This document shows positions 1,381 to 45,798 of a stretch of DNA of 64,000 nucleotides, piece by piece. The translations under genes were made by a program, and so were the position numbers. The stretch is taken from IMG/VR virus record IMGVR_UViG_2895221163_000002, positions 1-64,000 of that record; one strand, written 5' to 3'. Numbering within the stretch: the first letter of the stretch is position 1; every line of letters begins with the position of its first letter. The notes below the pieces were generated by a model that ran no database searches, had not been told where the DNA came from, and saw nothing but the letters and a program-made list of their open reading frames with translations. Origin of the DNA: a virus (taxonomy: Duplodnaviria > Caudoviricetes).

Positions 1381-3033
1381 TCAAAGAGGAATTCCGCGTC
1401 TTGATTTATCTTTAATCCAAGACGCAACTTTGTCGAGGAATACCCAGACGTCGTCGTTAGAGGGAAGAACATAATTCTCATCTTTGGGATCGCTTCCCAG
1501 CGCCTCGAATATATTGCGCAACCACCTTTTTTTGGTTCTATTGATTTTTAATTTCGGCAGCCAGTGTTCGACTTCCCCGTTTTGCAGGACAAAGAAACCA
1601 TATTTGTCCAGTGTCTCAAAAAGATTCTCAGCCCGCTCCCTCGCAACATTTTCAAGGAGAAGAATTCCTCCACCTGATTTGGGGTCCTTGCCGGCTGAGG
1701 TAAGATCATCCCAGACGACTTTGCGCTGCGATCTTATGGAGTCATGCGGTTTTGGATAGTATGTGGCATCCAAAAGAACGGAAAAATTGGTTTTAGGATT
1801 GAGGGCGTCGATGTCAACTATGATCGCAACAGGTATTCCAAGCGCCCGAAGCGGACCCACGATTTTATTAACTGAATCCTTACCGTTGGCGTTTAAGAAA
1901 AGGGTATTCGGTGCTCCTCGCCCAGATCCCGTTTCTAGAAGCCTCTCGTTAAGCTCTTGGTAGAAAGCGCGATCCGAATCCGCTTCGGCAACCACGACGC
2001 CTTCGTAGAAGACGCCGGACAAAGCATTTGCAGACCGTAGAAGTGGCTCTTGCATCATGGCACGTATGTCGTCGTTCGAAAGCATCCGAGCGGTAGCACT
2101 GCCTTGCTGATAGGTCAGGCGCACAACATTTGCGTTCACGCCAGACTGGATTGCTCCCATCAAAAACTGGCTGCTGTGGGTCGATACAAAAACCTGCTTG
2201 TCACCTTTGCTCGCAGCCTGAGCAAGTTCGCGACCAAGATTGTAGGCCAACGCGGGATGCAAAAAGGCTTCCGGCTCGTCGATAATCACGATCTTCGGGT
2301 CGCCGACACGTAACGCTAACAACATGCCTGTAAAGGCCTTTATTCCATCACTCGTCTCATCGATGGTACGAGCCTTAGCCATCCATTCGAGTGTGGCCTT
2401 CTCGACGGAACGCTCGTTTGGGGGCGGTGTATTTCCATACCGCAATTTGATTAGCGCTCCTTCAGAAATGTCGAGGCCAAGATAAAGGCCGAACGCTTCG
2501 AAGAGAACATCCCGCAGCGACTGCCGACAAGCATCGTCCGTTAGCAGTTTAGCAAAATCACTTTGCGGATTCTTTAGGTCGCCCCTGTCTTGTGCTGTTA
2601 TCAAACGAATTCTATTCTCTCCGTTGAGAATGAGTACACGATCAGCTGCATAGTTTTGAGCGAAACAATTTATATCCACATCAGGATCATGTAGTGCTTG
2701 ACGGAAGGCAGAGATATCTACTAATCTCCTATGATTTCCAATGCTGATATATTCCCAGCCAGGTGATTTCTGGTTTGTCAAAGTGTGGGTGTGATCTATT
2801 AATTCTTTAAGAATCGTTTCGATTTCTTCAGTTGACTGTCCGTTAAATTTGAGATCAGCAAGAATTGAGCCTCTAGGAATTCCTGATTTACTGAATTCAG
2901 CAATTTCGCTTAGGATCATACTTTTTCCTGAGTTGTTTGGCCCAACAAAAATGGTAATGCCAGGCTCATTCAACACCAGTGGCTCAGCCCCTTGGCTAGC
3001 ACCAAAACGCAATCTTAATTCCTTAATAAGCAC
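1381..3033 (-). CDS. OLD-family ATP-dependent nuclease (ABC ATPase + TOPRIM), probable anti-phage protein
   Basis: Walker A GPNNSGKS, Walker B/D-loop IIDEPEAFLHP, STHS, TOPRIM-like VAEADSD and IVDID; lower GC than its neighbours. Confidence 0.82.
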   Translation of the reverse strand: MLIKELRLRFGASQGAEPLVLNEPGITIFVGPNNSGKSMILSEIAEFSKSGIPRGSILADLKFNGQSTEEIETILKELIDHTHTLTNQKSPGWEYISIGNHRRLVDISAFRQALHDPDVDINCFAQNYAADRVLILNGENRIRLITAQDRGDLKNPQSDFAKLLTDDACRQSLRDVLFEAFGLYLGLDISEGALIKLRYGNTPPPNERSVEKATLEWMAKARTIDETSDGIKAFTGMLLALRVGDPKIVIIDEPEAFLHPALAYNLGRELAQAASKGDKQVFVSTHSSQFLMGAIQSGVNANVVRLTYQQGSATARMLSNDDIRAMMQEPLLRSANALSGVFYEGVVVAEADSDRAFYQELNERLLETGSGRGAPNTLFLNANGKDSVNKIVGPLRALGIPVAIIVDIDALNPKTNFSVLLDATYYPKPHDSIRSQRKVVWDDLTSAGKDPKSGGGILLLENVARERAENLFETLDKYGFFVLQNGEVEHWLPKLKINRTKKRWLRNIFEALGSDPKDENYVLPSNDDVWVFLDKVASWIKDKSRRGIPL

Positions 3034-5553: not shown

Positions 5554-6057
5554 TCAGGCAGAGAGGAGCGTGTCCGTTGGTACGGATTGCCTCCCGAGGA
5601 AGACATCCCGCTCATAGGCGCGACGTTTGGCGAGGCCGGGCAGCTCAACCAGATGACCCCGAACGGTGGCCTTGTCCCAGCGCAGCAGTTCGTCGGCCGC
5701 CCCGGTATAATCTCCGGCATTCAGCTTGCGCAGCAGAGTCGAGCTTTCGACGGCAACGGTCCCGACATTGTACTGCCAAGACAGCAGGGCGGCGCGCTGG
5801 ACGTCCGACAGCGGCACCTGAACCAAGCGGGACAGCGCTGCATCAAACGTCGTCACGGCCAGAAGCAGGAGACTGTCAGCGGCTGCCTTATCGATGGGTG
5901 CAGTCCGGGCCGTGATTGGCTGTCCGTTGGCCAGCCAGCGGCTGCCATACCCGATCGTCCAGTATCCGGCGGGACAGACATAGGGCTTCGACCGAAAACC
6001 TTCGAACCCAGGCAGCCGCAGCAGCGCCGTGGCCAGAACGATGGCAGTGTCATACAT
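5554..6057 (-). CDS. Phage lysozyme/endolysin (GH24)
   Basis: FEGFRSKPYVCPAGYWTIGYG, YNVG, GLAKRRAYE. Confidence 0.92.
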   Translation of the reverse strand: MYDTAIVLATALLRLPGFEGFRSKPYVCPAGYWTIGYGSRWLANGQPITARTAPIDKAAADSLLLLAVTTFDAALSRLVQVPLSDVQRAALLSWQYNVGTVAVESSTLLRKLNAGDYTGAADELLRWDKATVRGHLVELPGLAKRRAYERDVFLGRQSVPTDTLLSA

Positions 6058-6256
6058 GGGGGATTTTCCATAAAAAAAAGCCGCCCGATTAGCGGTATGT
6101 TGCGCCTAAGAAAATAGGTACGAAACGGTTATTATAATAACGAAATACATAAAATTTTGCGGAATAGTGGAATGCAATGGTTTTTATTTTTCCTTAAAGG
6201 AAATCATTTTTTGTCGTAGGATGTTTATGACCAAAATGAGGTTAGGATAAAAATAC

Positions 6257-6538
6257 ATGCCTAGATTCACTGTTCGTGTCGAACTTCATAATGCCCAACC
6301 CCAAGATTACGAACTTCTGCATGAAGAAATGCTAAAATTTCATTTTAAGAGAACCATTGAGGGTACCGATGGAACGATCTATAAATTACCAACCGCCGAA
6401 TACAATATAATTAGCGCCGATACTGGCGAAGAGGTTCGTTCAAATGCATTTCAAGCAACTAAAAATATTGGGAAGTATGCATCTGTATTGGTAACCAAAT
6501 CTGATGGAATATTTTGGATTAATCTTGATGAAGAATAA
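6257..6538 (+). CDS. GhoS/DUF2622-like endoribonuclease (Cas2-like fold)
   Basis: FTVRVELH..DYELLHEEM..F.RTI..YKLPTAEY family pattern; AT-rich insert on the opposite strand. Confidence 0.75.
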   Translation: MPRFTVRVELHNAQPQDYELLHEEMLKFHFKRTIEGTDGTIYKLPTAEYNIISADTGEEVRSNAFQATKNIGKYASVLVTKSDGIFWINLDEE

Positions 6539-6596
6539 GGTAATTATTTTCCTTATTTATAATTATATAACACTATAATTTTATCTTTATCTACTA

Positions 6597-6935
6597 TCAT
6601 CTTCCAATCGACACCACCAAATGAACCACCCCGGACCCAAGGATTGACGTCGCCAGAGTAACGAGTGCCGTGACCACGGCCTTGCCGCCCATGACGCGAT
6701 CAAACTTGGATCCGAGGGCTTTGATCCCTGCCTCCAGTTCTTCTTTCAGGTCTTTGATCTGGGTGCGCAGGGACGCGATTTCCGAGCGCATCTCGGCGCG
6801 CAGATCAGACTGATTGTCTCCCAGGGCCGAGACCAGCGTTTCCAGTTTGAGAACCCGATCTTCCAGAGCACGGATGATGATGTCCTTGTCAGAGAGTGCT
6901 TTGTCGATCGGGGCAGTCATGGCGGTATCAGGCAT
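6597..6935 (-). CDS. Coiled-coil protein with C-terminal TM helix (holin/antiholin-like)
   Basis: Heptad-rich body, hydrophobic C-terminus, first gene of the lysis cassette. Confidence 0.55.
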   Translation of the reverse strand: MPDTAMTAPIDKALSDKDIIIRALEDRVLKLETLVSALGDNQSDLRAEMRSEIASLRTQIKDLKEELEAGIKALGSKFDRVMGGKAVVTALVTLATSILGSGVVHLVVSIGR

Positions 6936-6946
6936 GGTTTTTCCAT

Positions 6947-6969
6947 AAAAAAACCGCCTCATGGGCGGC
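6947..6969 (-). terminator. Terminator-like hairpin
   Basis: GCCGCCCATGAGGCGGTTTTTTT. Confidence 0.65.
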
Positions 6970-7031
6970 GGCTGTCTGTCAGGTTGTTCATCAGGTCATT
7001 TTGTTGGGTTATTGCTCTGAGTATTAACCTC

Positions 7032-9398
7032 CTAGTTGCATGCCGTTGCACTACGATAGAGCTGCCCTGATGAGTTCAGGCAGGCGTAAGCGTTCCCGGC
7101 TCCGTTCAGACTGGTAAGAACCACCCCATCCTTCATAACAGTCGTGCCTCCATTACCCCCGACAGTCAGGTTGCCTTGAATTGTGCCTGATCCCGTGACA
7201 GTCATATCGGCACTGATTGTCGTGGCATCCTTCATGCTAATGGAGCCGCCAAAGCCTCCCAGAACTGTATTCCCATGGGACGTCAGACCTCCTGTGATGA
7301 GCAGGTTACTGTTCAGGTTTGTCGGGATGTCGATATCGAAATGCGTATTCTGCCCAAGACCGGAGAGCACGACCGACGTGTCGCCAGTGCTGGCATCGGT
7401 TTGCTCTAAGAGCTGTGCAATGTTGGATCCGCTGGGACTCTGGAAAAACTGCGTTCCTTGAAGAACGATATTGGATTTGGCCGTGATTTGCTGATTGAAC
7501 GTCACCCCATCCTTGAACAGGGTGCTACCGCCATACCCACCGATAACAGCATTCCCATGTGTTTCCAGCCCCCCGGTGACAGTCAGGTCATTACCAACAG
7601 TCGTTGGCAGGTTAAACAGAACGGACGCGCCACCAGATGCCAAGCTTGAATACGCCAGTACGTTATTCTTCGATGCATCCGTGGATGCCGCTACTGCGAC
7701 GATGTTGTCGCCCGCCGTATTCTGGTAGTAGGTCGTCCCGGTCGTCACGAGGTTTGCATTCACGCTCACCTGATTTTTGAATGTTGCACCCCCGGCAACA
7801 TTGAGCGCGCCCGCCAACGATACATCACCGTTGCCAGCTACTGACAGGCCGCAATTCACGCCATATCCGCACAGCGCCACGCCGCCTGTGCTGCCCGGGA
7901 AGTCGATCTCGCCCAGCAGAGAGGCGGTATCCGTGCTGGACGTGTTGCCCTTCGTACCATTGATACGTGGCCCGAAGCGCAGGGTCGCGTTGGTGTAGCT
8001 TCCCGTTCCCGTGCCGTCGCTGGTGAGATGCGTTACCAGCCGCTCATTATACCCTGCGACGATCTGATGCAGTTCCGTCATATCGAAATCATAGACGGCT
8101 CCAACGGGAGTGAGAGCGAACAGAGAGCAGGCGGAAGGGAGATAGAGCTGATTGGTGTCGATCGCCATGTTTCCGCAGGCATCGGCAATCTCCAGATGAT
8201 GTGGCATGTCATTCGCCAGCATCAATTCGTAGCTTTCCGACGTAAACACCTGACCCGGAGTGATGGACGCTCCTGCCGGGACAGACTGGCCTCCGCCAAA
8301 CGTCAGACCGTGATAGCTCAAGGCTCCCGCCCGCGTCTCGTTCTGCACGTTGACGTCCACCTCGCCCCATTCGAGCTGATGAACTGACGACGTGTCGCGC
8401 GTACCTGCGCCCGTGAACGCGCCGTCGTACTGCATCATCGTATTGAACCCGAAGACTTTCGTCGGAGATCCCACGAACACGACAGGAGCGGGAGTTTTCG
8501 GGAAATAGAACGTATCCAGACCAGTAAGGCTCGGGGTTTGGCTGGCTCCTGAACGTCCCATCCGGTTCCAGGCCCAGACCGTGATAACGGCAGTCGGCCC
8601 CGTATTGTCCACGCTTCTGACGATGCCTGCCAGGAAATGGGGATTGTCCCATGTTTCAACATCTGATGCGGCGGGATCGGCGGAATTGGTGATGATGTAC
8701 TGGCCCTGATGGATCAACAGGAGCTGCTGCGGCGTCAGGGATACGCTTAAGGTCGCCGTTGTGGTGGTGTAAGCCGTTACGGGCAGAACCAGTCGCGCCT
8801 GACGTGACCCGGCCTCCCAGTAGATCCCAGCCGTGTCAAAGCTGATGGGAACGATCCGGCTATCCCCTTCGTAATCGTCACCGCCCAGTTCAGCCAGCAT
8901 AGTGTTCTGCTGGCCACCCGTCGTGAAGAGGCAAAGGCCGCACCCATTATTGAATGGTCCGTCGGGGTGGCTGGAAATGACCAGGCTCTGAGGCAACCCG
9001 GGTGATCCCATCGGGGAGTTTGCGACAGTCCCAAGGGGCGTGCCGCCCATCTGGAGCGTGTTGTTCCCGACCAATGGGCTGCCGAGAACGGCGGTCATGT
9101 CCTGCCCGACATACATTGACGGGTAAGCCGTCTGCGACTGGACGCCAAATGTTCCAGACGCGCTTAAAAGCGGCGCCGTCATGGCACCATTCATATTCAG
9201 TCCCGCCACACCCCCTGGCACATTCTTCTGGAGCGCGGCCATCACTGCGGCGATAGTCTGCCGATCCCAGAGTGTATTGGGGGCATTGATGATCGAAGCA
9301 CCGCTGATACCGTTGCCCGGAGCAATCCACTGGCTGGTAATAGGCGCGGCGCCTGCCAGCGACGGCAGGAGAGCCAGCGTCAGAATGAGTTTTTTCAT
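7032..9398 (-). CDS. Tail fibre/spike-like beta-rich protein with an N-terminal signal peptide
   Basis: Last gene of the tail module; G/T/S/N-rich; KNVPGGVAGL motif; tandem ~94-aa repeats; MKKLILTLALLPSLAGAA leader. Confidence 0.6.
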   Translation of the reverse strand: MKKLILTLALLPSLAGAAPITSQWIAPGNGISGASIINAPNTLWDRQTIAAVMAALQKNVPGGVAGLNMNGAMTAPLLSASGTFGVQSQTAYPSMYVGQDMTAVLGSPLVGNNTLQMGGTPLGTVANSPMGSPGLPQSLVISSHPDGPFNNGCGLCLFTTGGQQNTMLAELGGDDYEGDSRIVPISFDTAGIYWEAGSRQARLVLPVTAYTTTTATLSVSLTPQQLLLIHQGQYIITNSADPAASDVETWDNPHFLAGIVRSVDNTGPTAVITVWAWNRMGRSGASQTPSLTGLDTFYFPKTPAPVVFVGSPTKVFGFNTMMQYDGAFTGAGTRDTSSVHQLEWGEVDVNVQNETRAGALSYHGLTFGGGQSVPAGASITPGQVFTSESYELMLANDMPHHLEIADACGNMAIDTNQLYLPSACSLFALTPVGAVYDFDMTELHQIVAGYNERLVTHLTSDGTGTGSYTNATLRFGPRINGTKGNTSSTDTASLLGEIDFPGSTGGVALCGYGVNCGLSVAGNGDVSLAGALNVAGGATFKNQVSVNANLVTTGTTYYQNTAGDNIVAVAASTDASKNNVLAYSSLASGGASVLFNLPTTVGNDLTVTGGLETHGNAVIGGYGGSTLFKDGVTFNQQITAKSNIVLQGTQFFQSPSGSNIAQLLEQTDASTGDTSVVLSGLGQNTHFDIDIPTNLNSNLLITGGLTSHGNTVLGGFGGSISMKDATTISADMTVTGSGTIQGNLTVGGNGGTTVMKDGVVLTSLNGAGNAYACLNSSGQLYRSATACN

Positions 9399-9805
9399 TT
9401 GCCGTCATCCACCTGGGTTGCGACACCGGCATTGTTCTGAAAGCCGTTGAAATTGGTGCCAGCTCCCATGGTCGGACTTGCGGCCAGGAGTGCAGCGAGA
9501 GACGCGGCGAGAGCCTGAGGCGACAAGGGCATGCCAGACGCCGTGCCTGTCATGGCCGAATATGCAAATACGTCACCGTTCATCCACAGACCGCCGCCCT
9601 CCGGCGCTTTTGTTGGAAGCGTCTGCCCAAGCTGGAGAAGGCCCAGAGCTACGATCGACACCGCAAAATTGTTTGCGGTGATGTTGCAAGGCTCATAGCC
9701 GGTGACAGTATTCTGGGCATTGAGAACAGGCCGGAGGAAGACAAGCAGATCCGTCGCCTGCACGCTCGTTTGCGTGAGTGCGGGGTCAGACGCGAGTTGA
9801 GGCAT
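9395..9805 (-). CDS. Hypothetical tail-associated protein
   Basis: ORF coupled (ATGA overlap) to the 788-aa gene. Confidence 0.6.
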   Translation of the reverse strand: MPQLASDPALTQTSVQATDLLVFLRPVLNAQNTVTGYEPCNITANNFAVSIVALGLLQLGQTLPTKAPEGGGLWMNGDVFAYSAMTGTASGMPLSPQALAASLAALLAASPTMGAGTNFNGFQNNAGVATQVDDGK

Positions 9806-9810
9806 GGGGT

Positions 9811-10260
9811 CTATCCGAAGATCAGGGGGTTTCCGGAGGCATCAGGCACGATCGCCGAGCCAAGGAAAAAGGCATTCGGGGCATAGGCCGGGGCGTCACA
9901 GGTAATCAGCTGGGGCGCGCAGCGGACTATGATGGAGGCGGTAGCCGTGAAGACTGCGCCTGTGGCCGTGCGAACGGAAAGCGTTGCTGTTTGCGCGCCT
10001 GAGCACAGCCATTGCACCCACATAGTGGCCAGGGTTCCGAAAGTGCTGGTCCATGCGATCACGCCGCCGCTGCACATGGCTTCAACTTCCACGATCCGGT
10101 CGGAGCGCCCCAGAAGATGCGAGAAATCAATGCTGTAATCTGCAGATTCGTTCAGTGATGTTTCGGGCCAGCAAAGCCAGATGGGAGGGGAAGTCCCGCG
10201 AACTTGAAAAGATCGCGGGACTTCTGCGCGTAAGATACGCCGAGCCGGAACCCACGTCAT
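9811..10260 (-). CDS. Hypothetical tail-associated (adaptor-like) protein
   Basis: Start MTWVP overlaps the upstream stop; WPETSLNESADYSIDFS motif. Confidence 0.6.
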   Translation of the reverse strand: MTWVPARRILRAEVPRSFQVRGTSPPIWLCWPETSLNESADYSIDFSHLLGRSDRIVEVEAMCSGGVIAWTSTFGTLATMWVQWLCSGAQTATLSVRTATGAVFTATASIIVRCAPQLITCDAPAYAPNAFFLGSAIVPDASGNPLIFG

Positions 10261-10583
10261 GAAGTTACAGAGGCCGGGACCGCAGGCAGAACTGCACTGG
10301 CGGTGTCCGTCCCTTCCGCAATACCTTGAAGTGTCGAGACATATGCCCGCATCTGGGGGCCGAATGTATTCCCCATCGCAATGGCCAGCGCTGCCTCTCC
10401 TCTTACCGAGGTTAGCGCACCGATCGCCTGATCTTTCAGGGAGTTCATGAAGGTTGATTTGGCCGCCGCGTATTCGTCCGCCGTGCATGACACATAACCG
10501 TCCGGGATCGTCGTGCTGTTTCCCCAACTGGCGAGCCCGGTGACGGTGCCTGATGCGTTTTTCTGGAGTGCATAGATCGTCAT
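10257..10583 (-). CDS. Putative tail fibre assembly protein
   Basis: Small ORF directly after the tail fibre gene. Confidence 0.55.
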   Translation of the reverse strand: MTIYALQKNASGTVTGLASWGNSTTIPDGYVSCTADEYAAAKSTFMNSLKDQAIGALTSVRGEAALAIAMGNTFGPQMRAYVSTLQGIAEGTDTASAVLPAVPASVTS

Positions 10584-10592
10584 GATGCCGCC

Positions 10593-11492
10593 TTATGCCG
10601 GGATGTAGAGATAGCTGAGGGTGTGGCCGACATTCGGCGGATTGGTCGCCGATGTGCCGCAATATGACCCCACAGTTACAGGGCCAGCCGAAACCTTCAC
10701 GCATGAATGGTTGGTCATCGACGTTGAACCCGTTACCTGGTCTGCGCTGAGATTGGTGCCGTTAACGCTGATCGTCAGGTTTGTCTGATTGGTGTTCTGC
10801 ACCGAATAGTTCGCAGAGCCGACGACAAGCACATAACCGTCGAGAGGCGCATCGAATTCAAGAGAAATGGTTTTCGAGCCACCGGACGCGAGCGTATAAT
10901 ATTGCTCGGTCCAATCTCCGAGACCCAGCGTCTTGTTGCCGGTCATGGCGAAGTTGCCAAAGTCAGTTTCGTCAACCTTCGCCCCGATACGCGCCGCTCC
11001 TGAAGTAACCCCCTCGCGCAGACCGATATAGACTTGGTTTCCCGTTGCCAGAGCTCCGTCAGACAACCCCTGTTTGATGAACTGATTCCAGCCAAATATC
11101 TGCCAAGCTGCACCGTCGGTGTTCGGGGTCGTGGTATTGCTGCCTGCGGTTGAAATCCACAACAGCCCGACCGTTGCAGCGTCGGCAACGATGGCATTGA
11201 GAGGGTAGCCCCCAACGGCCATTGCAAAATCTGCAGAAAAAGGACGGACCAGTCCCAGCTTTTGAGCACCCAAGGCAATCTGATTGAGCTGATTTTTAGA
11301 TGGCGCAATTCCCGCCTCAGCCAATACACCCAACAACTCCTGCTGAACGATATTCAGCCAATCAGCTGTGACAACTGTAGCGGCCAATCCTGCTCCTGGA
11401 TTTCCCCCCGTGAAAAATCCAGGAACGCCTGCCGCCGACACGGCGGGCATTGATGTAGCAGCCGTCGCGTTATCGATTGCGTACATTTCCAC
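10593..11492 (-). CDS. Tail fibre protein
   Basis: Mu/SfV-type N-terminus GFFTGGNP..ATVVTADWLNIVQQEL. Confidence 0.85.
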   Translation of the reverse strand: MEMYAIDNATAATSMPAVSAAGVPGFFTGGNPGAGLAATVVTADWLNIVQQELLGVLAEAGIAPSKNQLNQIALGAQKLGLVRPFSADFAMAVGGYPLNAIVADAATVGLLWISTAGSNTTTPNTDGAAWQIFGWNQFIKQGLSDGALATGNQVYIGLREGVTSGAARIGAKVDETDFGNFAMTGNKTLGLGDWTEQYYTLASGGSKTISLEFDAPLDGYVLVVGSANYSVQNTNQTNLTISVNGTNLSADQVTGSTSMTNHSCVKVSAGPVTVGSYCGTSATNPPNVGHTLSYLYIPA

Positions 11493-11501
11493 TTCTCGCT
11501 T

Positions 11502-12137
11502 TCATTTACTGTCGCCACCAAAATTGCCGAGTAGGTCTTCGCCGCTCTGCGCGAACAGCACGCGCGTATGGGCGGGGCAACGACTTATGATTTCGCAATT
11601 GAGAACTGCATTTCCCCAAGATATTAACGGTTCCCCTGCAGAACCTGAGTTTGCGAGAAAATACTGCTCCGTGTAGCCGGGCGCATTCACCGTCCACACG
11701 AAGGCCCAGTCGGATCCGTAAACGGGTTCCCCCGCACGAAAGATATCCGCACGAGCAGGCGCATGCTCACTGATCGTTATTTCAAAGCCGAGCGCTGCCG
11801 CGAAAGCGGCATAATAAGAGATGGAAGATCCGCCACTATCTGTCAGACGCGCTACAACCTGAGATCTTCGCAAGGAGAGCGTAGGGCTTTCACCTGCACA
11901 GGGATCTGGAAGACCGGTTGTTTTTTCCCATTCTTCAAGAAGCTCGATAGTCGTTTCTGGAAAGATTTCCGTAAGAAGATCCGAGGCCCTTTCACTATTT
12001 CTGGCAAAAGTCTTGCCCCATACAGTGGCGAGCATAGATGGAAGAGCATCGCGCTCGCGTGACCAAATTGCGCCCCGAGGCAAAAGCTGCAGGAACGCCT
12101 GGCGGAAATTCTCCGCCGAGAAAACAGGCGCCCCCAC
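11502..12137 (-). CDS. Baseplate protein (Mu gp48/YmfQ-like)
   Basis: LLPRGAIW, LLEEWEK..GLPDPC, CPAHT. Confidence 0.87.
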   Translation of the reverse strand: MGAPVFSAENFRQAFLQLLPRGAIWSRERDALPSMLATVWGKTFARNSERASDLLTEIFPETTIELLEEWEKTTGLPDPCAGESPTLSLRRSQVVARLTDSGGSSISYYAAFAAALGFEITISEHAPARADIFRAGEPVYGSDWAFVWTVNAPGYTEQYFLANSGSAGEPLISWGNAVLNCEIISRCPAHTRVLFAQSGEDLLGNFGGDSK

Positions 12138-14288: not shown

Positions 14289-15476
14289 CTAGCTGTTGAT
14301 CGCTTGGATTCCCTCATTGGAGAGAGCCGGCAGGAGCAGTGGCTCAGGCATCAGACCTTCAGGCGGTATCAGCACGAGATCCGCACGCGTCCCATCCTCG
14401 CCTTGCCGGAAGACAATCTCGGCAATCACGAGATCCATTTCCTCTCCGCTCTTGAGGCGGACAGGAGCCATGTGATTGACGGCCCACAAGTTGCCTGAGG
14501 TATCGCGCCAACTGTCGCACGTCACAGTTACCGTGTTCGCCCGCCCATATCGGCGCGCAACCTCCCATTGAACCCGCTTGGTTGTGACTGCATAGTCCTG
14601 ATCGCCAAGCTCAGCCGGGATCAGAAGCGGCCGGGTCCGGACAATACCCGGATCTTCTGCCACCGCCCCGGACGTGACGGCATCCATCTGTCCAATGTAG
14701 TCAGCATCCCCAGGCTCACTGAACAGGAGAGCCGTTGTCATCAGAACGGCGGTGATACTCGAGAACCGCCCTGCCGTGCTTCGAACGGTGGTCATCTGCT
14801 CGACATTTTCGCCGTAGATCAGACCGCTGGCCATGCGCTGACTTCCGACAGCTGCGAAAGCTACGTTCCCGTCTGGCAGGTCATAGAACAGCACACCTGC
14901 CAGGCGTGCCACTCGTTCGATGATCTCATAGGCCGTTTCGGTCAGGATGACGCTGAACTGCTGGAGGTCAATGTTCCCTGCCCCGTTGATCTGGACGACG
15001 TCGATCTCTGCGAATTTTGCTACCCTTTTTGCAAGGGCCAAGGCATTGGTCGAGTTCATCTGATACGTGGAGAACTCGGCCGAACAGTCCACCAGATCCA
15101 TGCTCTTGCTGGCGATCTGCAGGCGGAATTCATGCCTTTCCGGGCTGACAGCCTCGACGACTGTGACGACATAGCCGGTGATCAGAAGATCTGTTCCAAT
15201 CCGGACTTCAGCAACGTCCCCCTCATTCACCAAAGGAACGCCAGCTGGATTATTGAGATCGCCCAGCCAGTTCTCATTACTCTCTGATGCACTTTTTGCG
15301 GGCTGGTACTCTGTCATTCCCAGATCGGCAACCCACGGCATCAAATCGACACCACATCTTACCGTGACGTCAGTCCAGCCGGTAAGGAGCCTACCATTGA
15401 TCAGAACAGAAGCCGTCTTCTGAGCATCCTCGTCATAGCCGAGGATCTGCTCAATCTGATCAATGATGCCGCTCAT
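14289..15476 (-). CDS. Baseplate hub protein (Mu gp44/gpP-like)
   Basis: GWTDV, DLVDCSA, SWRD..G.LW..N. Confidence 0.87.
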   Translation of the reverse strand: MSGIIDQIEQILGYDEDAQKTASVLINGRLLTGWTDVTVRCGVDLMPWVADLGMTEYQPAKSASESNENWLGDLNNPAGVPLVNEGDVAEVRIGTDLLITGYVVTVVEAVSPERHEFRLQIASKSMDLVDCSAEFSTYQMNSTNALALAKRVAKFAEIDVVQINGAGNIDLQQFSVILTETAYEIIERVARLAGVLFYDLPDGNVAFAAVGSQRMASGLIYGENVEQMTTVRSTAGRFSSITAVLMTTALLFSEPGDADYIGQMDAVTSGAVAEDPGIVRTRPLLIPAELGDQDYAVTTKRVQWEVARRYGRANTVTVTCDSWRDTSGNLWAVNHMAPVRLKSGEEMDLVIAEIVFRQGEDGTRADLVLIPPEGLMPEPLLLPALSNEGIQAINS

Positions 15477-16771
15477 GAAGACAACGCCTCAAACTCAGTT
15501 GGCATGAATGCCGGGTGAACGGGATCAGCTCGATTCACCAGATCATCGGATCGGGTACCGTCCGCATAGAGCTGTTGGGCCAGTGTCAGTGCCGGCAGCG
15601 GCGCGTTTCGCTGGATCGTGACGATGTCAGGCAGTTTTGCCGCCCGCTTCATCAGATCCTGCGACACCTGAACCCGCAAAGCCTTCAGAGCCGCCCAACT
15701 GGCGTCATCCTGTGCATCGGCGGCGACCAACTCTTCAGCCTCGAACAGCGCGACCACGCGGCTGCACATTGTCTCTGCATCCTCTGACGAGGCGGGGGTC
15801 CAGTCCGAGCAGGCTTGAGCAATCGAAGCTAAAGCAGCACGCCGACACAGGGCAGCGGTTTCGGTCTGGGCCGTGGCCAGCGCGGCGCCGATCGGGGCAG
15901 TTGAGTTGATGACGTCGACTGAACATGAAGCCATTGGCCACAGAAGCGAGATTTGCACGCCTGGGTCTGCGATTGCCTCCCGAAGCGTCTCTGTCAAAGC
16001 TTGCACGGCCGAAGAAATCGCTGCTGCCGTTGTAAGGCTCGCGAGTGCTGCAGTTGCTTGCTCGATTGCATCCCGCGAGCCGCTGAGGGTCGTCAGAACA
16101 CTGTCTTCCGTAGCCGTCGCATCCGTTTCGGCCCCTGCCCCGGAAGCATACCGGCCATTATTGCCAGGAAGAACCGAGGCAGCAGACTGCATCGCTTCTG
16201 AAGAGCCAATCGCGGAAAGAGCACCGCCACTCCAACCGGCCCCTACTGATCGGGCTGCGGCAATGGCAGACCCGCCAGTCGCAAATGCTGACGATATGCG
16301 GCTGGAGTAACTGGAGGATGATGCAGATGAGAGCGCAATGCGTGCGACCGCGACGGCCGCATGAAGTGCTGTGACGACCAGAGTGCCCAGCAGGTTCTTC
16401 TGTTCGACAAACTCGAACTCGAGATCCACGACATTCAGCCGTCCGTCCCGTTCCCGCCAGTCAAAGCGGGTACATGCTGCCTGAATTGCCCCGATGGACG
16501 GATGCACCAGCAGGCCATTCCCCGGTCTTTCCACGACCGCTACCAGAGCGTCCCTTTGCACATAAGCCAGATCACCGACCACAAAGCCAAGGATCCGATA
16601 TCGCCGCGCCTTCTTGCCAAGGTCTTCAACCCAGACACCTGCGCGTCCGGGATAAGCATGCTCAGCCTGTTTGCGCCCACTGGAGCCGCCGCTGCCGATC
16701 ACGACAAACGGCACTCCACGGAACGAGCACTGAAGGTATTCAGCCGCCGTTCTGGCGAGAGTGCCGCTCAT
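15473..16771 (-). CDS. Mu gpN-like DNA circulation/tail protein
   Basis: SFRGVPF, EDLGK, LVHPS, LYADGTR..L, HPAFMP. Confidence 0.9.
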   Translation of the reverse strand: MSGTLARTAAEYLQCSFRGVPFVVIGSGGSSGRKQAEHAYPGRAGVWVEDLGKKARRYRILGFVVGDLAYVQRDALVAVVERPGNGLLVHPSIGAIQAACTRFDWRERDGRLNVVDLEFEFVEQKNLLGTLVVTALHAAVAVARIALSSASSSSYSSRISSAFATGGSAIAAARSVGAGWSGGALSAIGSSEAMQSAASVLPGNNGRYASGAGAETDATATEDSVLTTLSGSRDAIEQATAALASLTTAAAISSAVQALTETLREAIADPGVQISLLWPMASCSVDVINSTAPIGAALATAQTETAALCRRAALASIAQACSDWTPASSEDAETMCSRVVALFEAEELVAADAQDDASWAALKALRVQVSQDLMKRAAKLPDIVTIQRNAPLPALTLAQQLYADGTRSDDLVNRADPVHPAFMPTEFEALSS

Positions 16772-16798: not shown

Positions 16799-18661
16799 TT
16801 AATTCCCCACAGCGGTCAGCGCCGGATCCATCGCCCGATGCTGGCTGATGGCATGGACTTTCAGCCCCGGTGTCGTGCTTTTCACCTGTACCGATGATCC
16901 GGGCGGAGCATTCCGGTGGTCGATTTCGACGCGCAGTTGGGCAGTTTTTTGATCAATACTTTGCAGCGCCGGCGGCAGGGATAACTTGGCATCACTGAGT
17001 TTGCTGGCCCAGTGATCCGCCATCTCACCACGAATAGAACCTTCGTCTGCCAAATTGGCGGGAACTTCATACCCATACGAAACGGCCTGCGCCGCCTCTT
17101 GAGGGTTTCGGGCCATCCGGAGATTAGCGTCCGCGAGGGGGTACTTGTTCTTCAACTCCCAGTCATAGAACTGAAGCTGCTCAGCAAAAGTTGAGTCCCG
17201 GATATTCTTACCCATGTGCTTTTCGAAAAGCTTCTGCCGGTCCGGATGCCATTGTCCAATCCCGTAAGCCGATCCATTGTCTCCAACGCTGTCAGGAAGG
17301 AACTGGCTTTCACGGTCGATATTCGCGACCATGCCAAGCGATTCAGTGCGAGAGCGACCTTGCGACCGAAAATAGTTATAAGCCGCCTGCGCCTGCCCTT
17401 TTTCGCCTCCGGACAGACGCCAGATGCCGCGGCCGATGTGGTTACTGGCAGACGGCGGAGCGGTTTTAGGATCTTTGTAGTGCTCCCACGCAAGATAGAG
17501 CGCCCCAAGTCCTGCTATTGCACCGGTTGCAGCAAGGCCAATCCCCCCGATCGCCGTTGAGATACCAAGTATTGCCGTCGCAAGAGTTGCGACCCCAGCC
17601 AACACTGGCGCCGCATACAGCACCGCAATCCCTCCAAGAGCGATTTTCCCGGCAGTTCTCCAGCCACCCAAACCATCAACGACGAGCAGAACTTCGTCAT
17701 ATACGCCCCTGATATCACCCTTGATTTGGCTCCATCCGCCTGTCCGAAGCCAGGTGATGAAGCGGTGAACATATCCGGCGATATCCTGGGCAATCCACTC
17801 TCGGTTTGCCGAAATCCAGTCCCGCATCTCATTGACGACAGGCGTGATCACTGGCTCAACAGCCTGAGCCAGCGAATACCCAAACCCTTCAACTGCTTCC
17901 GTAAGTCCTGTCTGAGCCTGACGAAGCCGATCAGCGGCGTCAGCTCCGGCCCGGTTCATGACGCCCAGTCGTTCAGCTTCCTTTACGTTGGCCTGATACT
18001 GCTCTTCGGTTTGTTGCAGGATTGGCATCAACCCTTGCGCCGCCCCACCAAAGATCTGCGTTGCAGCGATCACCTTGGCGGCCGGGTCACGGATCGAACG
18101 GATACGCTTGGCGACCCGTTCAAACATGTCATCGGGCTTCATCCGCTGCAGTTCCTGCAGACTGATTCCAAGAGCTTTGAACTGGACAATAGCTTCCGGA
18201 GCAAAGCCGTGCGTAGCTTCCCAACGGGTCTGCGAAAGTCCCTGCAAAGCGCTGGACATCGCCTCTTCAGAGCCACCTGACAGACGCGCCGCGTTTTGCA
18301 TCGCCATGAGACGATTAGGCGCCATCCCCATGGAATTTGCCGCGGTTCTCAGGTTCGTTCCGAACTGGCCCCAGGCACTTGCCAGCTTATAGATGCCCGC
18401 TATGGACGCTGCTCCCGTAATCGTCCCGAGAACAGGAACGATCTGCGAAAGCGAACGGAACATGCCAAGACCAGCGCGGGCAACCTTGCCGACACCGCTT
18501 TGGAGGCGTGTCAGACCTGTAACGCTTGAAAAGCGATTGACGGCAGCCATTGTCCGCCGAACAGGAGCCTGAATAGCCGCGATCCTGGCATTGATGCGCT
18601 CAAGCGTCTGAGACGCCCGATCGACAGCCGAGATCGTTACCTTAACGCCTTTGTTGGCCAT
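16799..18661 (-). CDS. Tape measure protein with C-terminal tail lysozyme-like domain
   Basis: ISAVDRAS N-terminus; helical body; ANIDRES..AYGIGQWH..R..EQLQF. Confidence 0.87.
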   Translation of the reverse strand: MANKGVKVTISAVDRASQTLERINARIAAIQAPVRRTMAAVNRFSSVTGLTRLQSGVGKVARAGLGMFRSLSQIVPVLGTITGAASIAGIYKLASAWGQFGTNLRTAANSMGMAPNRLMAMQNAARLSGGSEEAMSSALQGLSQTRWEATHGFAPEAIVQFKALGISLQELQRMKPDDMFERVAKRIRSIRDPAAKVIAATQIFGGAAQGLMPILQQTEEQYQANVKEAERLGVMNRAGADAADRLRQAQTGLTEAVEGFGYSLAQAVEPVITPVVNEMRDWISANREWIAQDIAGYVHRFITWLRTGGWSQIKGDIRGVYDEVLLVVDGLGGWRTAGKIALGGIAVLYAAPVLAGVATLATAILGISTAIGGIGLAATGAIAGLGALYLAWEHYKDPKTAPPSASNHIGRGIWRLSGGEKGQAQAAYNYFRSQGRSRTESLGMVANIDRESQFLPDSVGDNGSAYGIGQWHPDRQKLFEKHMGKNIRDSTFAEQLQFYDWELKNKYPLADANLRMARNPQEAAQAVSYGYEVPANLADEGSIRGEMADHWASKLSDAKLSLPPALQSIDQKTAQLRVEIDHRNAPPGSSVQVKSTTPGLKVHAISQHRAMDPALTAVGN

Positions 18662-41525: not shown

Positions 41526-41921
41526 ATGAAGATTGATGAAATTCCTAAAGTCTACACCGTCAACGATCTTCTGGATCACCTGAAGGGTCGTATCGGTCGG
41601 GGAAAACTGATGCAGCACCTTTCTCAAGTCCCTGAGTTCGGCGATGGCCCCACGCACCGTCGCTGGTCCAACCGGATCGTTTTTTATCCCGAAGATATTA
41701 CCCGTCTGCTGTCGAGCCTCGAATGTCCCTTAAAATCGTCAAACGCCACAACACGAACAACCTCTATATCCGCGGCACCATCCGGGGCACGAGCGTATGC
41801 GAAAGCACTGGAACTTCTGACCCCACGCGGGCGGAAGAATTCCGTGCCAAGCGCGAGGCCGAACTCTGGACCGAGAGCATCTATGGCAAGAAGGCAACCG
41901 TCACATTCGCCCATGCCGTAG
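41526..41921 (+). CDS. Excisionase-like protein (prophage A)
   Basis: Directly upstream of and overlapping int; homologous to 45618-45992. Confidence 0.6.
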   Translation: MKIDEIPKVYTVNDLLDHLKGRIGRGKLMQHLSQVPEFGDGPTHRRWSNRIVFYPEDITRLLSSLECPLKSSNATTRTTSISAAPSGARAYAKALELLTPRGRKNSVPSARPNSGPRASMARRQPSHSPMP

Positions 41922-42832
41922 CGGCCTATCTGGAGGCAGAGGAACGATCAGAGACGACCAAGTTCCACCTCCGCCGCCTTCTGAACTATTTCGGCACCAC
42001 GCGACTGATCGAGATTGCACAGCCTCAGCTGGACGATGCCTATCGCAAGATTCTACGGGACGGTATTGCCGCCAGCTCCGCCACAAAAATGCGCGGCGTG
42101 CTGACACCATTGCGCGCTGTTCTAGAGTTCGCCGCGATTCGCCAATGGTGCGATCGACCGGCTTTCGACACGCCCCGCATTCAACGCGGTCGAACAACCT
42201 ATCTGAAGCCGGCCGAGGTCAGGCGTCTGATTGACGCCGCCGCCCCTCACCTGAAGCCGCTGCTGACGTTCTTGGTCGGAACAGGCGTCAGGATGTCCGA
42301 AGCGTTGGATCTGGAATGGAAGGACGTTGATCTGCGCGGGAAACAGGCTGTCGTCTGGCAAAAGCAGGGGAATGAACGCAGACTGGAGCTTGTGCCAGTA
42401 GTGATGGAAGCGCTTAAAGCCCTGCCCCACCGACACGGCCACGTTTTCCGTCCGGTCCAGATCCGTAGACGATTCAAGGGAGCCGATCCGGAGAGGATTA
42501 TTGGCGAGCGCTACCATAACAACGGCCGCACTAGCGGTGGGCAGATTAAATCAGGTTGGGCGGCCGCATGTCGCAAAGCTAAGCTGCCAGGAAAATTCCG
42601 GGTCTGGATCCCCAAAGGCGAAACCACAGAGCGCCGCGTCTTCGTCCCTGACATCACTCCTCACGATCTCCGCCATACCTGGGCCACCTGGCATTACTGT
42701 CTACACAAAGATCTCCTCCGTCTGAAAGACGAAGGAGGCTGGAGCACGATCAATATGGTGACGCGGTATGCGAAGCAGATGTCTATTGTCTATATTGCTG
42801 AAGTCAAAGAATTTATATCATCTTATAAGTGA
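41723..42832 (+). CDS. int: Tyrosine integrase (prophage A)
   Basis: TGVRMSEAL, HDLRHTWATW, GGW..MV.RY. Confidence 0.93.
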   Translation: MSLKIVKRHNTNNLYIRGTIRGTSVCESTGTSDPTRAEEFRAKREAELWTESIYGKKATVTFAHAVAAYLEAEERSETTKFHLRRLLNYFGTTRLIEIAQPQLDDAYRKILRDGIAASSATKMRGVLTPLRAVLEFAAIRQWCDRPAFDTPRIQRGRTTYLKPAEVRRLIDAAAPHLKPLLTFLVGTGVRMSEALDLEWKDVDLRGKQAVVWQKQGNERRLELVPVVMEALKALPHRHGHVFRPVQIRRRFKGADPERIIGERYHNNGRTSGGQIKSGWAAACRKAKLPGKFRVWIPKGETTERRVFVPDITPHDLRHTWATWHYCLHKDLLRLKDEGGWSTINMVTRYAKQMSIVYIAEVKEFISSYK

Positions 42833-42835
42833 CAG

Positions 42836-43366
42836 TTAATCATTCTTATACTCCTCACTAAAAAGTGCATGTGATCTTTTTGTTACCATAAGTAAATTAA
42901 GTAGGAAATGAGAATAAATAAATGCGGATATGTCGGAATATAAAATTCTATTAGACATTTTTGTTTGAGTTAATATGGAATACACCAGAATAAAATAAAC
43001 AAGAGATATTATACATATAAAAACAAGATAAGATATATTACAATCCACTTCGTTTATAAGCTTATTTCTGATTTCAAACTTATACTCTACTATGATATTC
43101 TCATCTGAATTTTTTGACCACTTCCTAGTAAATATGCCAAAGATTGCAACTTGTATGTTCAATAGCAGTGCTATAAAAATCCCAAAGAATGTTATTGATG
43201 TATTATAAAAATCTTTGTCAAAGCGAATATGTAATAAATTTATAATTACCCCAAATATTATTGGCACCACAAAGAAAATAAAAACATCAAAATTGTTAAT
43301 TTTTTTATTTTCATCTCGCAAGGTATTAAAGTGGTCTATAACAATATCTGTCATGGAGATTTTCAT
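42836..43366 (-). CDS. Four-TM membrane protein, candidate defence effector
   Basis: Four hydrophobic segments; very AT-rich; ATGA-coupled to the upstream gene. Confidence 0.72.
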   Translation of the reverse strand: MKISMTDIVIDHFNTLRDENKKINNFDVFIFFVVPIIFGVIINLLHIRFDKDFYNTSITFFGIFIALLLNIQVAIFGIFTRKWSKNSDENIIVEYKFEIRNKLINEVDCNISYLVFICIISLVYFILVYSILTQTKMSNRILYSDISAFIYSHFLLNLLMVTKRSHALFSEEYKND

Positions 43367-44274
43367 TCTTTTTTACCTATAAATCTATGAGAGATGCTCC
43401 TTTGTATCTCGGCAGATTGTTGAACTAGACTCTGCAAGGTCGGATGGCCATTAGGCGAAAAATCAACATCTTCTGAAATATCTATCAGGCCAGCATCTTT
43501 ATTGATTCCAAAAATAGAAACTTTACGTGTTTTTCCACCAATATTTATGCTTGCATCAGCCTCGTTAAAATCTATTCCGGAGCAAGTTATTAGAGATCCT
43601 TCAGAGTGCCTGAACTTTTCTACTACTTCTCCAAGAATGCCTATTTTCTGCTTTCGTCTAGCTGAGATGGTTAGTTCAATGTCTACTGACTCTGGCATTG
43701 TGTTTACAAGAAGATCAGCGATATCCGTGCTTGTGTTTCTTTTTATGAAAGTAACTTTTTTGACAGGAGAGTCCTTTAGAACACCATCTGTAAAATCCTG
43801 AGGAATTACTCTTTGGAACCATAGTTTGTATCCGGGATGAGTCCTTTCGAACCACTCTCGCAATACAGTCCAAGTCAATGACACGCACGATTTGCCCGAA
43901 AAAGTTTGTAGAGATAGAAATATGTTTCTATCATCAGGCATCCAAAAATCATAGAAAAGAGGTATTTCTTCGACGTCTGATGACTTTCTAGCATATTTTT
44001 TAGTCTTGGTTCTAAGGTCTTTTATAGTGCTCTCATATCCAAAGGTGCCATAATCTATATATCCATATATTCTATTTGGATCATTATTAAGTTTTTCAAT
44101 TACCCAGCTTCTCTCAGTTTTGTGGTCTGCAACATGAGTATTTTGTCCCTGAATGAATTCACTAACAAAATTCACCAGCTCGTTGTTCTTTTTGTATTTT
44201 ACTTTTTCTACTGGGTTACTGGATTCCTCGTAAACGCTTATAGCATAAATGCGTAGACCAATTGATGCGGGCAT
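43363..44274 (-). CDS. Soluble hypothetical protein, candidate defence sensor
   Basis: 303-aa AT-rich ORF with no motif I recognise with certainty. Confidence 0.72.
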   Translation of the reverse strand: MPASIGLRIYAISVYEESSNPVEKVKYKKNNELVNFVSEFIQGQNTHVADHKTERSWVIEKLNNDPNRIYGYIDYGTFGYESTIKDLRTKTKKYARKSSDVEEIPLFYDFWMPDDRNIFLSLQTFSGKSCVSLTWTVLREWFERTHPGYKLWFQRVIPQDFTDGVLKDSPVKKVTFIKRNTSTDIADLLVNTMPESVDIELTISARRKQKIGILGEVVEKFRHSEGSLITCSGIDFNEADASINIGGKTRKVSIFGINKDAGLIDISEDVDFSPNGHPTLQSLVQQSAEIQRSISHRFIGKKE

Positions 44275-44578
44275 AGTCTATTTCCAAATCCCTCGAAGTG
44301 TTCGCCGAGGCTAACTCATGTTTCAAACTAAGACTATATGAATCGCAAACCAAATTTTTCTCTGACTTCTTTGGTTTATGGCTAAATTCATTTCAGGAAT
44401 ATGAAATGAATTGGACGCGATAAGAATCGCCTTAGAGCGCACAAGTCTTCAGGGGTATCCGGATTTTCTCCAGATTCATCGCCGATTCAAACAGGCAGAT
44501 TCAATCTGAAACGACATATAGATAAAGTCTGAACATCATCACTGATGATGAATTATATGTATTTTTAAGGAGTTAGGA

Positions 44579-44626
44579 TGGTGGGCGCGACAGGGATTGA
44601 ACCTGTGACCCCTGCCGTGTGAAGGC
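44579..44626 (-). tRNA. 3' half of tRNA-Val(CAC): truncated copy forming the att core
   Basis: Minus strand GCC-TTCACAC-GGCAGGGGTC-ACAGG-TTCAATC-CCTGT-CGCGCCC-ACCA; 5' half and D-arm absent; adjacent to an integrase. Confidence 0.88.
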
Positions 44627-44670
44627 GAAGGAGGCCTTCTGTAAGTATCTGATAAACAGATATTTTAGTT

Positions 44671-45798
44671 CTAATTTCCTTTGCGGGCACCGATTTGGCA
44701 CGTCAGGACAATATCAGGCCAGTCCGTGTGTGCAAGCCAGCGGATCACGCCTTCCCGATGATAGTCAGGCATCTTCTTGGCATAGCGTGTCACGATCCCA
44801 ATCGTCTGCCAGCCCCCCTCTTCCTTTAGTCGTAATAGATCTCGATGAATGCAGTAGTGCCACGTCGCCCATGTATGGCGCAGGCAATGCGGTGTGAGGT
44901 CGGGCACGAAAGTCCGTTTCTCTGTGAGAGATCCTTTGGGTATCCAGATTCTCTCTCGGCCGGGCAGACCAGATCTCTTGCAGGCGTAAGCCCAAGCATT
45001 CTTGATCTGACCGCCACCATTGCGTCCGGTGTCATGGTACGCGTCGCCCATCGCTTGGCCGCGATATGGCCTAAATACCCTTCCCTCTCTGTGTGGTAGT
45101 CCACTTAAAGCCAGCACGACAACGGGCGGCAAATCAATGTGACGTTCTGTATCCTGTTTTTGCCATACTACGACGCGTGCGGCTGGCAGATCCACGTCTC
45201 GCCAATCCAATTCCAACGCTTCAGACATGCGAGCGCCAGTGCCGATCAGGAATACGAGCAGCGGCCGTACATGGGGCGCGGCCTCATTTACCAGGTCCGT
45301 TGCCTCGTTTGGTCTCAGGAACTGCATTTTCGTACGGGGGATCTTCGGGCTTGCGAAGGCTGGCTTGTCGCACCAGTCTCTCAGCGCTGCAAATTCTAGA
45401 ATGGCCCGAAGGGGAGTTAAAACGCCCCGGAGCTTTGTGGCCGGAGCTGCTGCCGCTCCCTTCGAGAGAATGGCTTTATATGCCTGGTCGACGTCTTCTT
45501 GCTTGATGGCATTCAGCTTGCGCGTACCAAAATGCCGCAGTAGCCGTTCGATATGAAACAACGTCGTCTCGCTCCGCTGTTCAGCCTCCAGATAAGCTGA
45601 AACGGCGGATGCAAAAGTTACGACCGCGCGTTTGCCGTAGACTGATTCTTCCCAGAGTTCCGCTTCCCGTTTTGCTCTGAAAGCCTCTGCCTGCTGCGGG
45701 TCAGGTGTGCCAGCGCATTCGTATATGCTTTGTCCTCGGACGGTTCCGCGGATGTAAAGCGATTCGCGGCCTTTCCGCTTGACGACTGACAGGGGCAT
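44671..45798 (-). CDS. int: Tyrosine integrase (prophage B)
   Basis: TGARMSEAL, HCLRHTWATW, GGW..IV.RY; ends ~45 bp from the att core. Confidence 0.93.
   Translation of the reverse strand: MPLSVVKRKGRESLYIRGTVRGQSIYECAGTPDPQQAEAFRAKREAELWEESVYGKRAVVTFASAVSAYLEAEQRSETTLFHIERLLRHFGTRKLNAIKQEDVDQAYKAILSKGAAAAPATKLRGVLTPLRAILEFAALRDWCDKPAFASPKIPRTKMQFLRPNEATDLVNEAAPHVRPLLVFLIGTGARMSEALELDWRDVDLPAARVVVWQKQDTERHIDLPPVVVLALSGLPHREGRVFRPYRGQAMGDAYHDTGRNGGGQIKNAWAYACKRSGLPGRERIWIPKGSLTEKRTFVPDLTPHCLRHTWATWHYCIHRDLLRLKEEGGWQTIGIVTRYAKKMPDYHREGVIRWLAHTDWPDIVLTCQIGARKGN

Follow-up and report, generated by a model that had tools for sequence, protein, structure and literature searches.

Exported tailspike-like proteins of bacteria and exported lysis and exclusion proteins of phages are already known. 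They are the background against which we consider P0001, a leader-bearing protein of 788 amino acids (aa) encoded by the final gene of the tail operon of a prophage, which is contained in a 64,000-nucleotide stretch of Caudoviricetes DNA (IMG/VR record IMGVR_UViG_2895221163_000002, positions 1 to 64,000; hereafter, the window). An earlier note, made from the letters of the window, had put forward that this protein could be exported, disulfide-bonded in the periplasm and attached to the particles at lysis, or that it could act as a secreted adhesin or receptor decoy. The accepted view is that the virions of tailed phages are put together entirely in the reducing cytoplasm. The Sec system does export some tailed-phage proteins, including signal-peptide and signal-arrest-release endolysins, the T4 antiholin RI, Llp of T5 and Lom and Bor of lambda, and Llp and Lom adjoin receptor-binding genes. 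Unlike P0001, all of these are lysis, exclusion or conversion proteins, and not large spikes in the receptor-binding slot. No description of a signal peptide on a tailed-phage fiber or spike was found in the full-text literature, the coverage of which leaves out most subscription journals and supplements, nor did any paper found there describe tailed phages whose receptor-binding slot regularly holds a protein with a leader; the papers examined dealt with endolysins.

Concerning phage spikes, the closest counterpart is Solidus_gp83 of Acinetobacter phage Solidus (PDB 24qj), a tailspike depolymerase. It is like P0001 in its profile homology over about 170 residues, in being the best fold match, in being a tail-module gene product and in having an exchangeable N-terminal module. 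On the other hand, the alignment spans only residues 72–244 of 24qj and part of the core of the P0001 family, and in the aligned stretch 24qj has A and S at the positions of the CxxC of the family.

Concerning bacterial proteins, WceF of Pantoea stewartii is a host-encoded, exported, trimeric, tailspike-like stewartan glycanase, with a twin-arginine translocation (Tat) leader and its gene in an exopolysaccharide cluster (PMC7949094). Being an exported bacterial protein of tailspike-like fold, it can serve as a model for those chromosomal members of the P0001 family that stand alone. In contrast to WceF, and comparing by description, the leader of P0001 has no twin-arginine (RR) motif and its gene lies in a tail operon. 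So, P0001 may work like WceF, but by leader type and gene location it falls outside the WceF-like exported glycanases. The mosaic adhesive trimer (MAT) fibers of Bdellovibrio have a signal peptide, a conserved, beta-rich N-terminal domain of ~130 aa and a fiber with interchangeable tips (PMC10769870). The P0001 family resembles them in its leader, its N-terminal module and its interchangeable C-terminal tips of at least four kinds, a likeness that is architectural only; unlike P0001, the MATs are chromosomal proteins of a predator and not products of phage genes. No S74 domain was found in Pfam scans of P0001 and the members of its family.

Leader and cysteine pairs of P0001

The N-terminus of P0001 (residues 1–17, MKKLILTLALLPSLAGA) is composed of an MKK n-region, the uncharged h-region LILTLALLPSL and the small residues A15-G16-A17, and residues 58–67 form the motif KNVPGGVAGL; both elements, to which the earlier note had called attention, are present in the translation. 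Leader calls were made with a crude, home-made test of n/h/c layout (not SignalP), which is a measure of enrichment and no classifier. P0001 was positive in this test, as were 59 of the 77 family representatives that have a start codon, and two others became positive when read from a Met farther downstream. Among the 16 negative representatives, most begin inside the core (fragments) or fail on a technicality. The background of the test in the same genome was 437/2679 (16%) for greedy open reading frames (ORFs) and 105/506 (21%) for ORFs of at least 500 aa. Together with the positive result in 10/10 related tail modules described below, this bears out, as far as the crude test goes, the conservation of the leader in homologs that had been proposed as a check.

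Besides its lack of RR, the leader of P0001 has no lipobox Cys, there being no Cys before residue 153. In the whole family, RR occurs in 4 of 79 leaders and a lipobox-like Cys in 3 of 79; therefore, the family leaders are of the Sec type, and not of the Tat or lipoprotein types. From the −3/−1 rule and the conservation that starts at A17 A18 P19 I20 T21, cleavage of P0001 would be expected after A17.

The protein contains exactly eight Cys, which form the four local pairs claimed earlier: 153/156 (CxxC), 408/424 (Cx15C), 510/516 (Cx5C) and 773/787 (Cx13C). They were compared in 65 family members of at least 450 aa, with parity counted after residue 30. Pair 153/156 was complete in 45 members, halved in 6 and absent from 14; the corresponding figures were 15, 2 and 48 for pair 408/424, and 41, 2 and 22 for pair 510/516. 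The C-terminal pair stayed outside the comparison, as the family tips do not align. The count of Cys was even in 63 of these 65 full-length members, the Cys being gained and lost in pairs, and in 9 of the 10 spikes of the tail modules. A separate observation is that the C-terminal tip GNAYACLNSSGQLYRSATACN of P0001 also ends small proteins of 110–205 aa (P0073, P0077–P0082), three of them with a leader (P0073, P0078 and P0081); this tip seems to be a mobile, disulfide-clamped knob.

It is thus very probable, judging from sequence, that P0001 is exported. Export followed by periplasmic oxidation is the well-supported part of the earlier idea, in view of a leader kept family-wide and in every module, of Cys that co-vary in pairs and of the A and S that 24qj has at the CxxC positions. 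The genome holds, in addition, two DsbA-family matches. Cytoplasmic assembly is the rule in tailed phages and the other tail proteins of this prophage have no convincing leader, which would fit a leader that is not used in the phage: P0001 would then fold in the cytoplasm and join the baseplate in the ordinary way, with its N-terminus buried in the adaptor or otherwise removed, and its disulfides would form after release. This is improbable, since the leaders diverge between modules (22–89% identity) yet keep the n/h/c layout, which is unexpected for a buried structural segment, and since the same kind of leader occurs on chromosomal family members, which have no baseplate to bind; the conserved pairing of Cys also argues against it. 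A leaderless isoform from an internal start was considered and rejected, as M53 is not conserved (W or F in the related loci L068 and L069).

Tailspike descent, tail module and proposed route

A phmmer search of P0001 against 1.84 billion cluster representatives gave 76 matches, 53 of them at E ≤ 1e-10 and 19 at E ≤ 1e-30, with a conserved core at about residues 107–540. Neither P0001 nor its upstream neighbor P0002 matched any family in scans with Pfam, PHROGs and NCBIfam. When 72 aligned members were scanned with Pfam, no family was matched by more than one of them, and only two single matches of chance level appeared (DUF3712 and SUKH-3, E 0.005–0.006); no counterpart of P0001 was found by tblastn among 50,697 phage records. 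The family is undescribed so far and has no existing model, so that an unnamed family of about 76 clusters receives here its first description.

With P0001 as the query, phmmer against PDB sequences returned 0 matches, and 24qj was reached by the family profile only, as the one solved chain matched (E 3.3e-5), the homology corresponding to the first part of the core. An AlphaFold2 monomer of P0001 was good at residues 200–310 and 400–530, and its best fold match was also 24qj (Foldseek E 2.9e-7). The comparison of both with VIA gave Z 9.5 and a root-mean-square deviation of 5.3 over 143 aligned residues, while the rows that came next had Z < 7, and a fold search of a viral library with the model placed tail-fiber proteins on top. 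The ESM Atlas score of P0001 was 0.82, which is a lead only. The profile and fold matches to 24qj, which cover only part of the core, indicate when taken together that the family is of tailspike descent; P0001 is a putative enzyme at most. Beyond the core, a fiber-like unit of about 94 aa occurs twice in P0001 and once only in its 78% and 72% relatives. This duplication is seen at the protein level only, Tandem Repeats Finder having found no DNA repeat within the gene.

The ATG of P0001 overlaps the stop codon of P0002 as AAATGAAAA (ATGA), with GGTGGA about 9 nucleotides (nt) upstream, in agreement with the translational coupling within the tail operon that had been claimed. Of 30 genomes of the genus, 11 contain genes like P0002, nine of them at E ≤ 4.5e-13. 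A module set of ten loci was assembled from eight fetched loci, the window and one IMG/VR contig from a search with a 7-row alignment. In every case, the gene that follows the P0002-like gene, with a 4-nt overlap, encodes a leader-bearing protein of 545–850 aa. Those of L070 and L073 are not family members by profile and have unrelated bodies. By the same crude test, leaders were called in 0/9 P0002-like proteins, 1/5 Gp77-like proteins and 2/9 fibers, the latter two figures being at the false-positive level.

The segments of the spike differ in their conservation between modules. Identity between the window and L068 was 61% in the leader (residues 1–18), 62% in the mature N-terminus (19–70) and 26% in the body (71 to the end), and the respective values were 72%, 60% and 29% between the window and L069, 89%, 87% and 33% between L054 and L070, and 22%, 44% and 97.6% between L054 and L071. 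These values indicate that the leader and the first ~50 mature residues form a single exchangeable block, independent of the body. This is the mosaic pattern of receptor-binding proteins, with a conserved anchor and a swappable body. An early motif of the PGG type occurs in 12 of 14 adaptor-linked proteins versus 1 of the 14 copies that have no tail genes close by, although the motif was defined post hoc and the rows are not independent, with near-copies included. In P0002, the first ~100 residues are conserved and the C-terminus shows variants that go with particular N-termini of the spike. In the ESM Atlas, P0002 has viral clusters as its nearest neighbors, and the closest with a name belong to tail-attachment families (scores 0.86–0.91, leads only). 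P0002 is a candidate adaptor, or a candidate export chaperone. It is also worth noting that P0002 contains two copies of the motif LPT..P..GG.W.N.G, of which a third copy is present in relatives of 191 aa (P0091, P0094; L003 13698–14324), and that a similar motif ends phiAP1_560.

The reading that we tentatively prefer, at slightly less than an even chance, is that P0001 is an exported, tailspike-type receptor-binding or depolymerase protein that joins the virions after lysis. Directed by its leader, the chain would pass through Sec while still unfolded and would be cut by signal peptidase I after A17. In the periplasm, the chain would fold, probably trimerize, and acquire four disulfides. The new N-terminus (APITSQWIAPGNG...) would dock on the leaderless adaptor pair of finished baseplates, once lysis by holin and lysozyme mixes cytoplasm with periplasm. 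The likely benefit would be an oxidized, acid-stable spike for a host living in acidic ferments. Given export, a virion spike is favored by the gene slot, by the presence of adaptor genes and by the mosaic nature of the N-terminal module, and such a spike would meet its partners only after lysis, because these are leaderless. For P22 and T4, it is well established that spikes or fibers can be joined to particles in vitro, so that attachment after lysis is chemically plausible. If this is true, the passage of a receptor-binding protein via the periplasm would be a new assembly route, infectivity would be tied to the Sec and Dsb systems of the host, and the disulfides of the phage spike would be explained, with maybe some relevance to stability in acidic ferments. 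Such spikes may need periplasmic expression to give an active product.

Phage and chromosomal copies of the family

When 201 genomes of the same taxonomic family were searched with the profile, 29 of them gave matches, often several per genome. The first 20 loci, of 20 kb each, were analyzed by calling greedy ORFs and scanning the neighbors with Pfam, with L052 judged by synteny with L051. Six of them lie in tail gene clusters. In L036–L038 and L045, the family member stands behind a protein with a Gp77 domain, with Mu-type baseplate genes present as well in L038 and L045; in L042 and L043, it is immediately upstream of a cluster of E217-like neck-terminator, sheath and tube genes. In L043 there is a transporter gene on the other side of the family member, a possible sign of a tailocin-like cluster or of the edge of a prophage. 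The member of L041 lies among fragments of insertion sequences and integrases. All the family members in the 20 loci start with a leader-like N-terminus.

Several points weigh against the preferred reading. In 13 of the 20 loci, the family members stand among housekeeping or unannotated genes, without a phage gene nearby. A gyrA-coaD-ppiB neighborhood is common to L047, L049 and L050, across three genera, and a paralog of 717 aa in the genome of P0001 itself (G000:C12:24776-26467; L002, L053), 33% identical and with its own leader and a different tip, lies between mazG and queA, likewise away from any phage gene. On a quick maximum-likelihood tree of 27 rows with midpoint root, the copies from phages and from chromosomes are intermixed, and the context changes at least five times. 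The lone and interleaved chromosomal copies therefore mean that the family works without a virion too. P0001 is a putative virion protein, and the phage already has an ordinary fiber, so the spike may be dispensable. The monomer model of P0001 is weak (mean pLDDT, the predicted local distance difference test score, of 65.8) and that of P0002 is unusable (pLDDT 44.4). The leader test falsely flags 2 of 27 other late-region ORFs of the prophage. Finally, the association of P0002 variants with spike N-termini may be plain linkage and not co-adaptation, because the C-terminal stretch of the one and the N-terminal stretch of the other abut in the DNA.

The strong rival to a virion spike is a P0001 that is exported but never enters the virion, as a soluble, periplasmic or secreted, tailspike-derived glycanase (depolymerase) or adhesin. 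We regard it as a serious possibility that nevertheless falls clearly short of probable. Such a protein might trim or destroy the surface polysaccharide of the host late in infection, with easier release and a progeny not stuck to debris; alternatively, its action might be the one that the chromosomal family members have. P0002 would then be a cytoplasmic escort that keeps the chain export-competent. The lone members, including those of the gyrA-coaD-ppiB sites and the mazG/queA paralog, and the interleaved tree are in agreement with it, as they are with the secreted adhesin or decoy of the earlier note, which the many members far from phage genes favor. With three secretin matches in the genome, a route across the outer membrane may be available, and WceF offers a precedent (PMC7949094). 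Against a soluble protein there is the constant place of its gene, which in 10/10 modules occupies the side-spike slot that follows a Gp77-like adaptor gene; there is also the separate recombination of the N-terminal module and the body, a behavior known from receptor-binding proteins, and the association of the PGG-type motif with adaptor-linked copies, with the reservations made above; the viral and tail-attachment neighbors of P0002 in the atlas, as leads, point the same way.

The family also documents a traffic between phage spikes and host-encoded exported proteins of fiber or glycanase type (of the WceF and MAT kind). A broader proposal, which we consider speculative and somewhat less likely than not, is that a lineage of temperate myoviruses of acetic acid bacteria has a two-compartment tail, with a cytoplasmic baseplate carrying its adaptors and a Sec-exported side spike, oxidized in the periplasm and added only at lysis, and that such spikes have been repeatedly captured by hosts as chromosomal surface or matrix proteins, and then taken back.

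P0001 could also be passenger cargo from the chromosome, expressed alone in the lysogen (lysogenic conversion, e.g., a surface adhesin or a receptor mask) and with no role in the phage cycle. Cargo genes are often located after tail-fiber genes, and the GC content is lower in the C-terminal 570 nt of the P0001 gene and also downstream of it; the part that encodes residues 541–788 has a value of 0.525. A pair made of a P0002-like gene and a family member is found outside any phage in L072 (G215:C1:413700-425200), beside a major facilitator superfamily transporter gene and with no other tail genes in 11.5 kb, being either a remnant or a captured two-gene cassette. We consider the cargo explanation very improbable, as it is at odds with the ATGA coupling to the upstream tail gene and with a slot conserved in 10/10 modules. 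Moreover, a consensus scan found no promoter-like site inside 7000–10600, and the three sites in 6000–11600 correspond to chance expectation (3.6).

Prophage setting and neighboring genes

The element of the window is a complete, temperate, Mu/phiAP1-like myovirus prophage, with gpA terminase, lambda-type portal, capsid E, sheath, lysozyme and integrase genes. The features relevant to P0001 are collected in Table 1. Upstream of P0001 and on the same strand there are also genes of Mu gp44, gp45, baseplate J and gp48 types, with sheath, capsid E, portal and terminase farther upstream.

Table 1. Coordinates of P0001, its parts and other features of the prophage in the window
Feature	Positions	Strand	Remarks
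P0001, tailspike-like, leader-bearing, 788 aa	7032..9398	-	Last tail-operon gene
P0001 Sec-type leader, codons 1–17	9348..9398	-	MKK/LILTLALLPSL/AGA
P0001 mature N-terminal module, residues 18–70 (APITSQWIAPGNGISGAS...)	9189..9347	-	Moves with leader and P0002 variant, apart from body
P0001 conserved family core, residues 107–540	7779..9080	-	Cys pairs 153/156, 408/424, 510/516
P0001 residues 541–788	7035..7778	-	Duplicated ~94-aa fiber-like unit and small C-terminal tip (GNAYACLNSSGQLYRSATACN) with Cys 773/787
Terminator-like hairpin and T-run	6952..6973	-	Directly after P0001 stop; consensus scan only
P0002, 136 aa, without leader	9395..9805	-	Directly upstream of leader-bearing spike
Gp77-like protein (fiber-tail adaptor family), 149 aa, without leader	9811..10260	-	Weak PF23148 match
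108-aa gene	10257..10583	-	Related to phiAP1_550
Tail fiber, 299 aa, without leader	10593..11492	-	Tail-fiber PHROG match
DNA-circularization-N / baseplate hub gene	15473-16771	-	Upstream of P0001
Tape measure with lysozyme domain	16799-18661	-	Upstream of P0001
Phage lysozyme (PF00959)	5554..6057	-	Lysis region downstream of P0001
Integrase	41723-42832	+	Prophage

The earlier note had placed an ordinary fiber and two small adaptor-like genes upstream of P0001. Both small genes are real, each with relatives of equal length, and the fiber matches tail-fiber PHROGs over its first ~78 residues only; the 108-aa gene had been overlooked and, from its position, is a possible fiber assembly protein. 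The 149-aa protein scored 25.6 bits against PF23148 (Gp77), for a gathering cut-off of 27, and proteins in the same position were above the cut-off in L045 (62 bits) and in L036–L038 (31–36 bits). The start of its gene is set at 10260 by relatives of 149 aa in five loci, the mechanical ORF 9811–10704 (297 aa) overlapping the 108-aa gene.

The nearest named relative of the prophage is Acetobacter phage phiAP1, whose baseplate J protein is 59.6% identical. In a similar position, phiAP1 has leaderless proteins of 208 and 640 aa. No significant similarity was found between phiAP1_560 and P0002 with hhalign, or between phiAP1_570 and P0001 with BLASTP, and a term search of the phiAP1 paper gave no mention of tail fibers, signal peptides or virion proteins (PMC8566455). 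The host of the prophage is probably a Gluconobacter, because the sources label the relatives of P0002 as Gluconobacter spp. Near-identical DNA was detected in 20 runs that belong to 8 studies, metagenomes of wine and of food fermentation among them.

Directly after P0001 there is an ORF of 121 aa (6597–6973), with a coiled coil and a C-terminal hydrophobic helix, which had no family match in the Pfam scan. Its listed ATG is inside the terminator-like hairpin, so its real start may be a later Met, and a relative of it comes after the spike in L067. Between the tail operon and the lysis genes, an islet of low GC content (6000–6800; 0.40–0.43 versus ~0.58–0.60 around it) contains a + strand ORF of 93 aa (6257–6538), with a weak match to a YmfI-family phage protein (43 bits versus a cut-off of 140), and has the look of a cargo gene inserted there. 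At its left end, the prophage region has a UmuC-like polymerase gene (1–1260), of a kind that also terminates the related prophage in L045, and an OLD-like AAA/TOPRIM gene (1381–3033) for a defense-type protein. Two integrase-like genes with similar N-termini, the one listed in Table 1 and another at 44671–45798 on the − strand, flank a stretch of GC content 0.425, and the region 41723–45798 may be a second integrated element adjoining the prophage.

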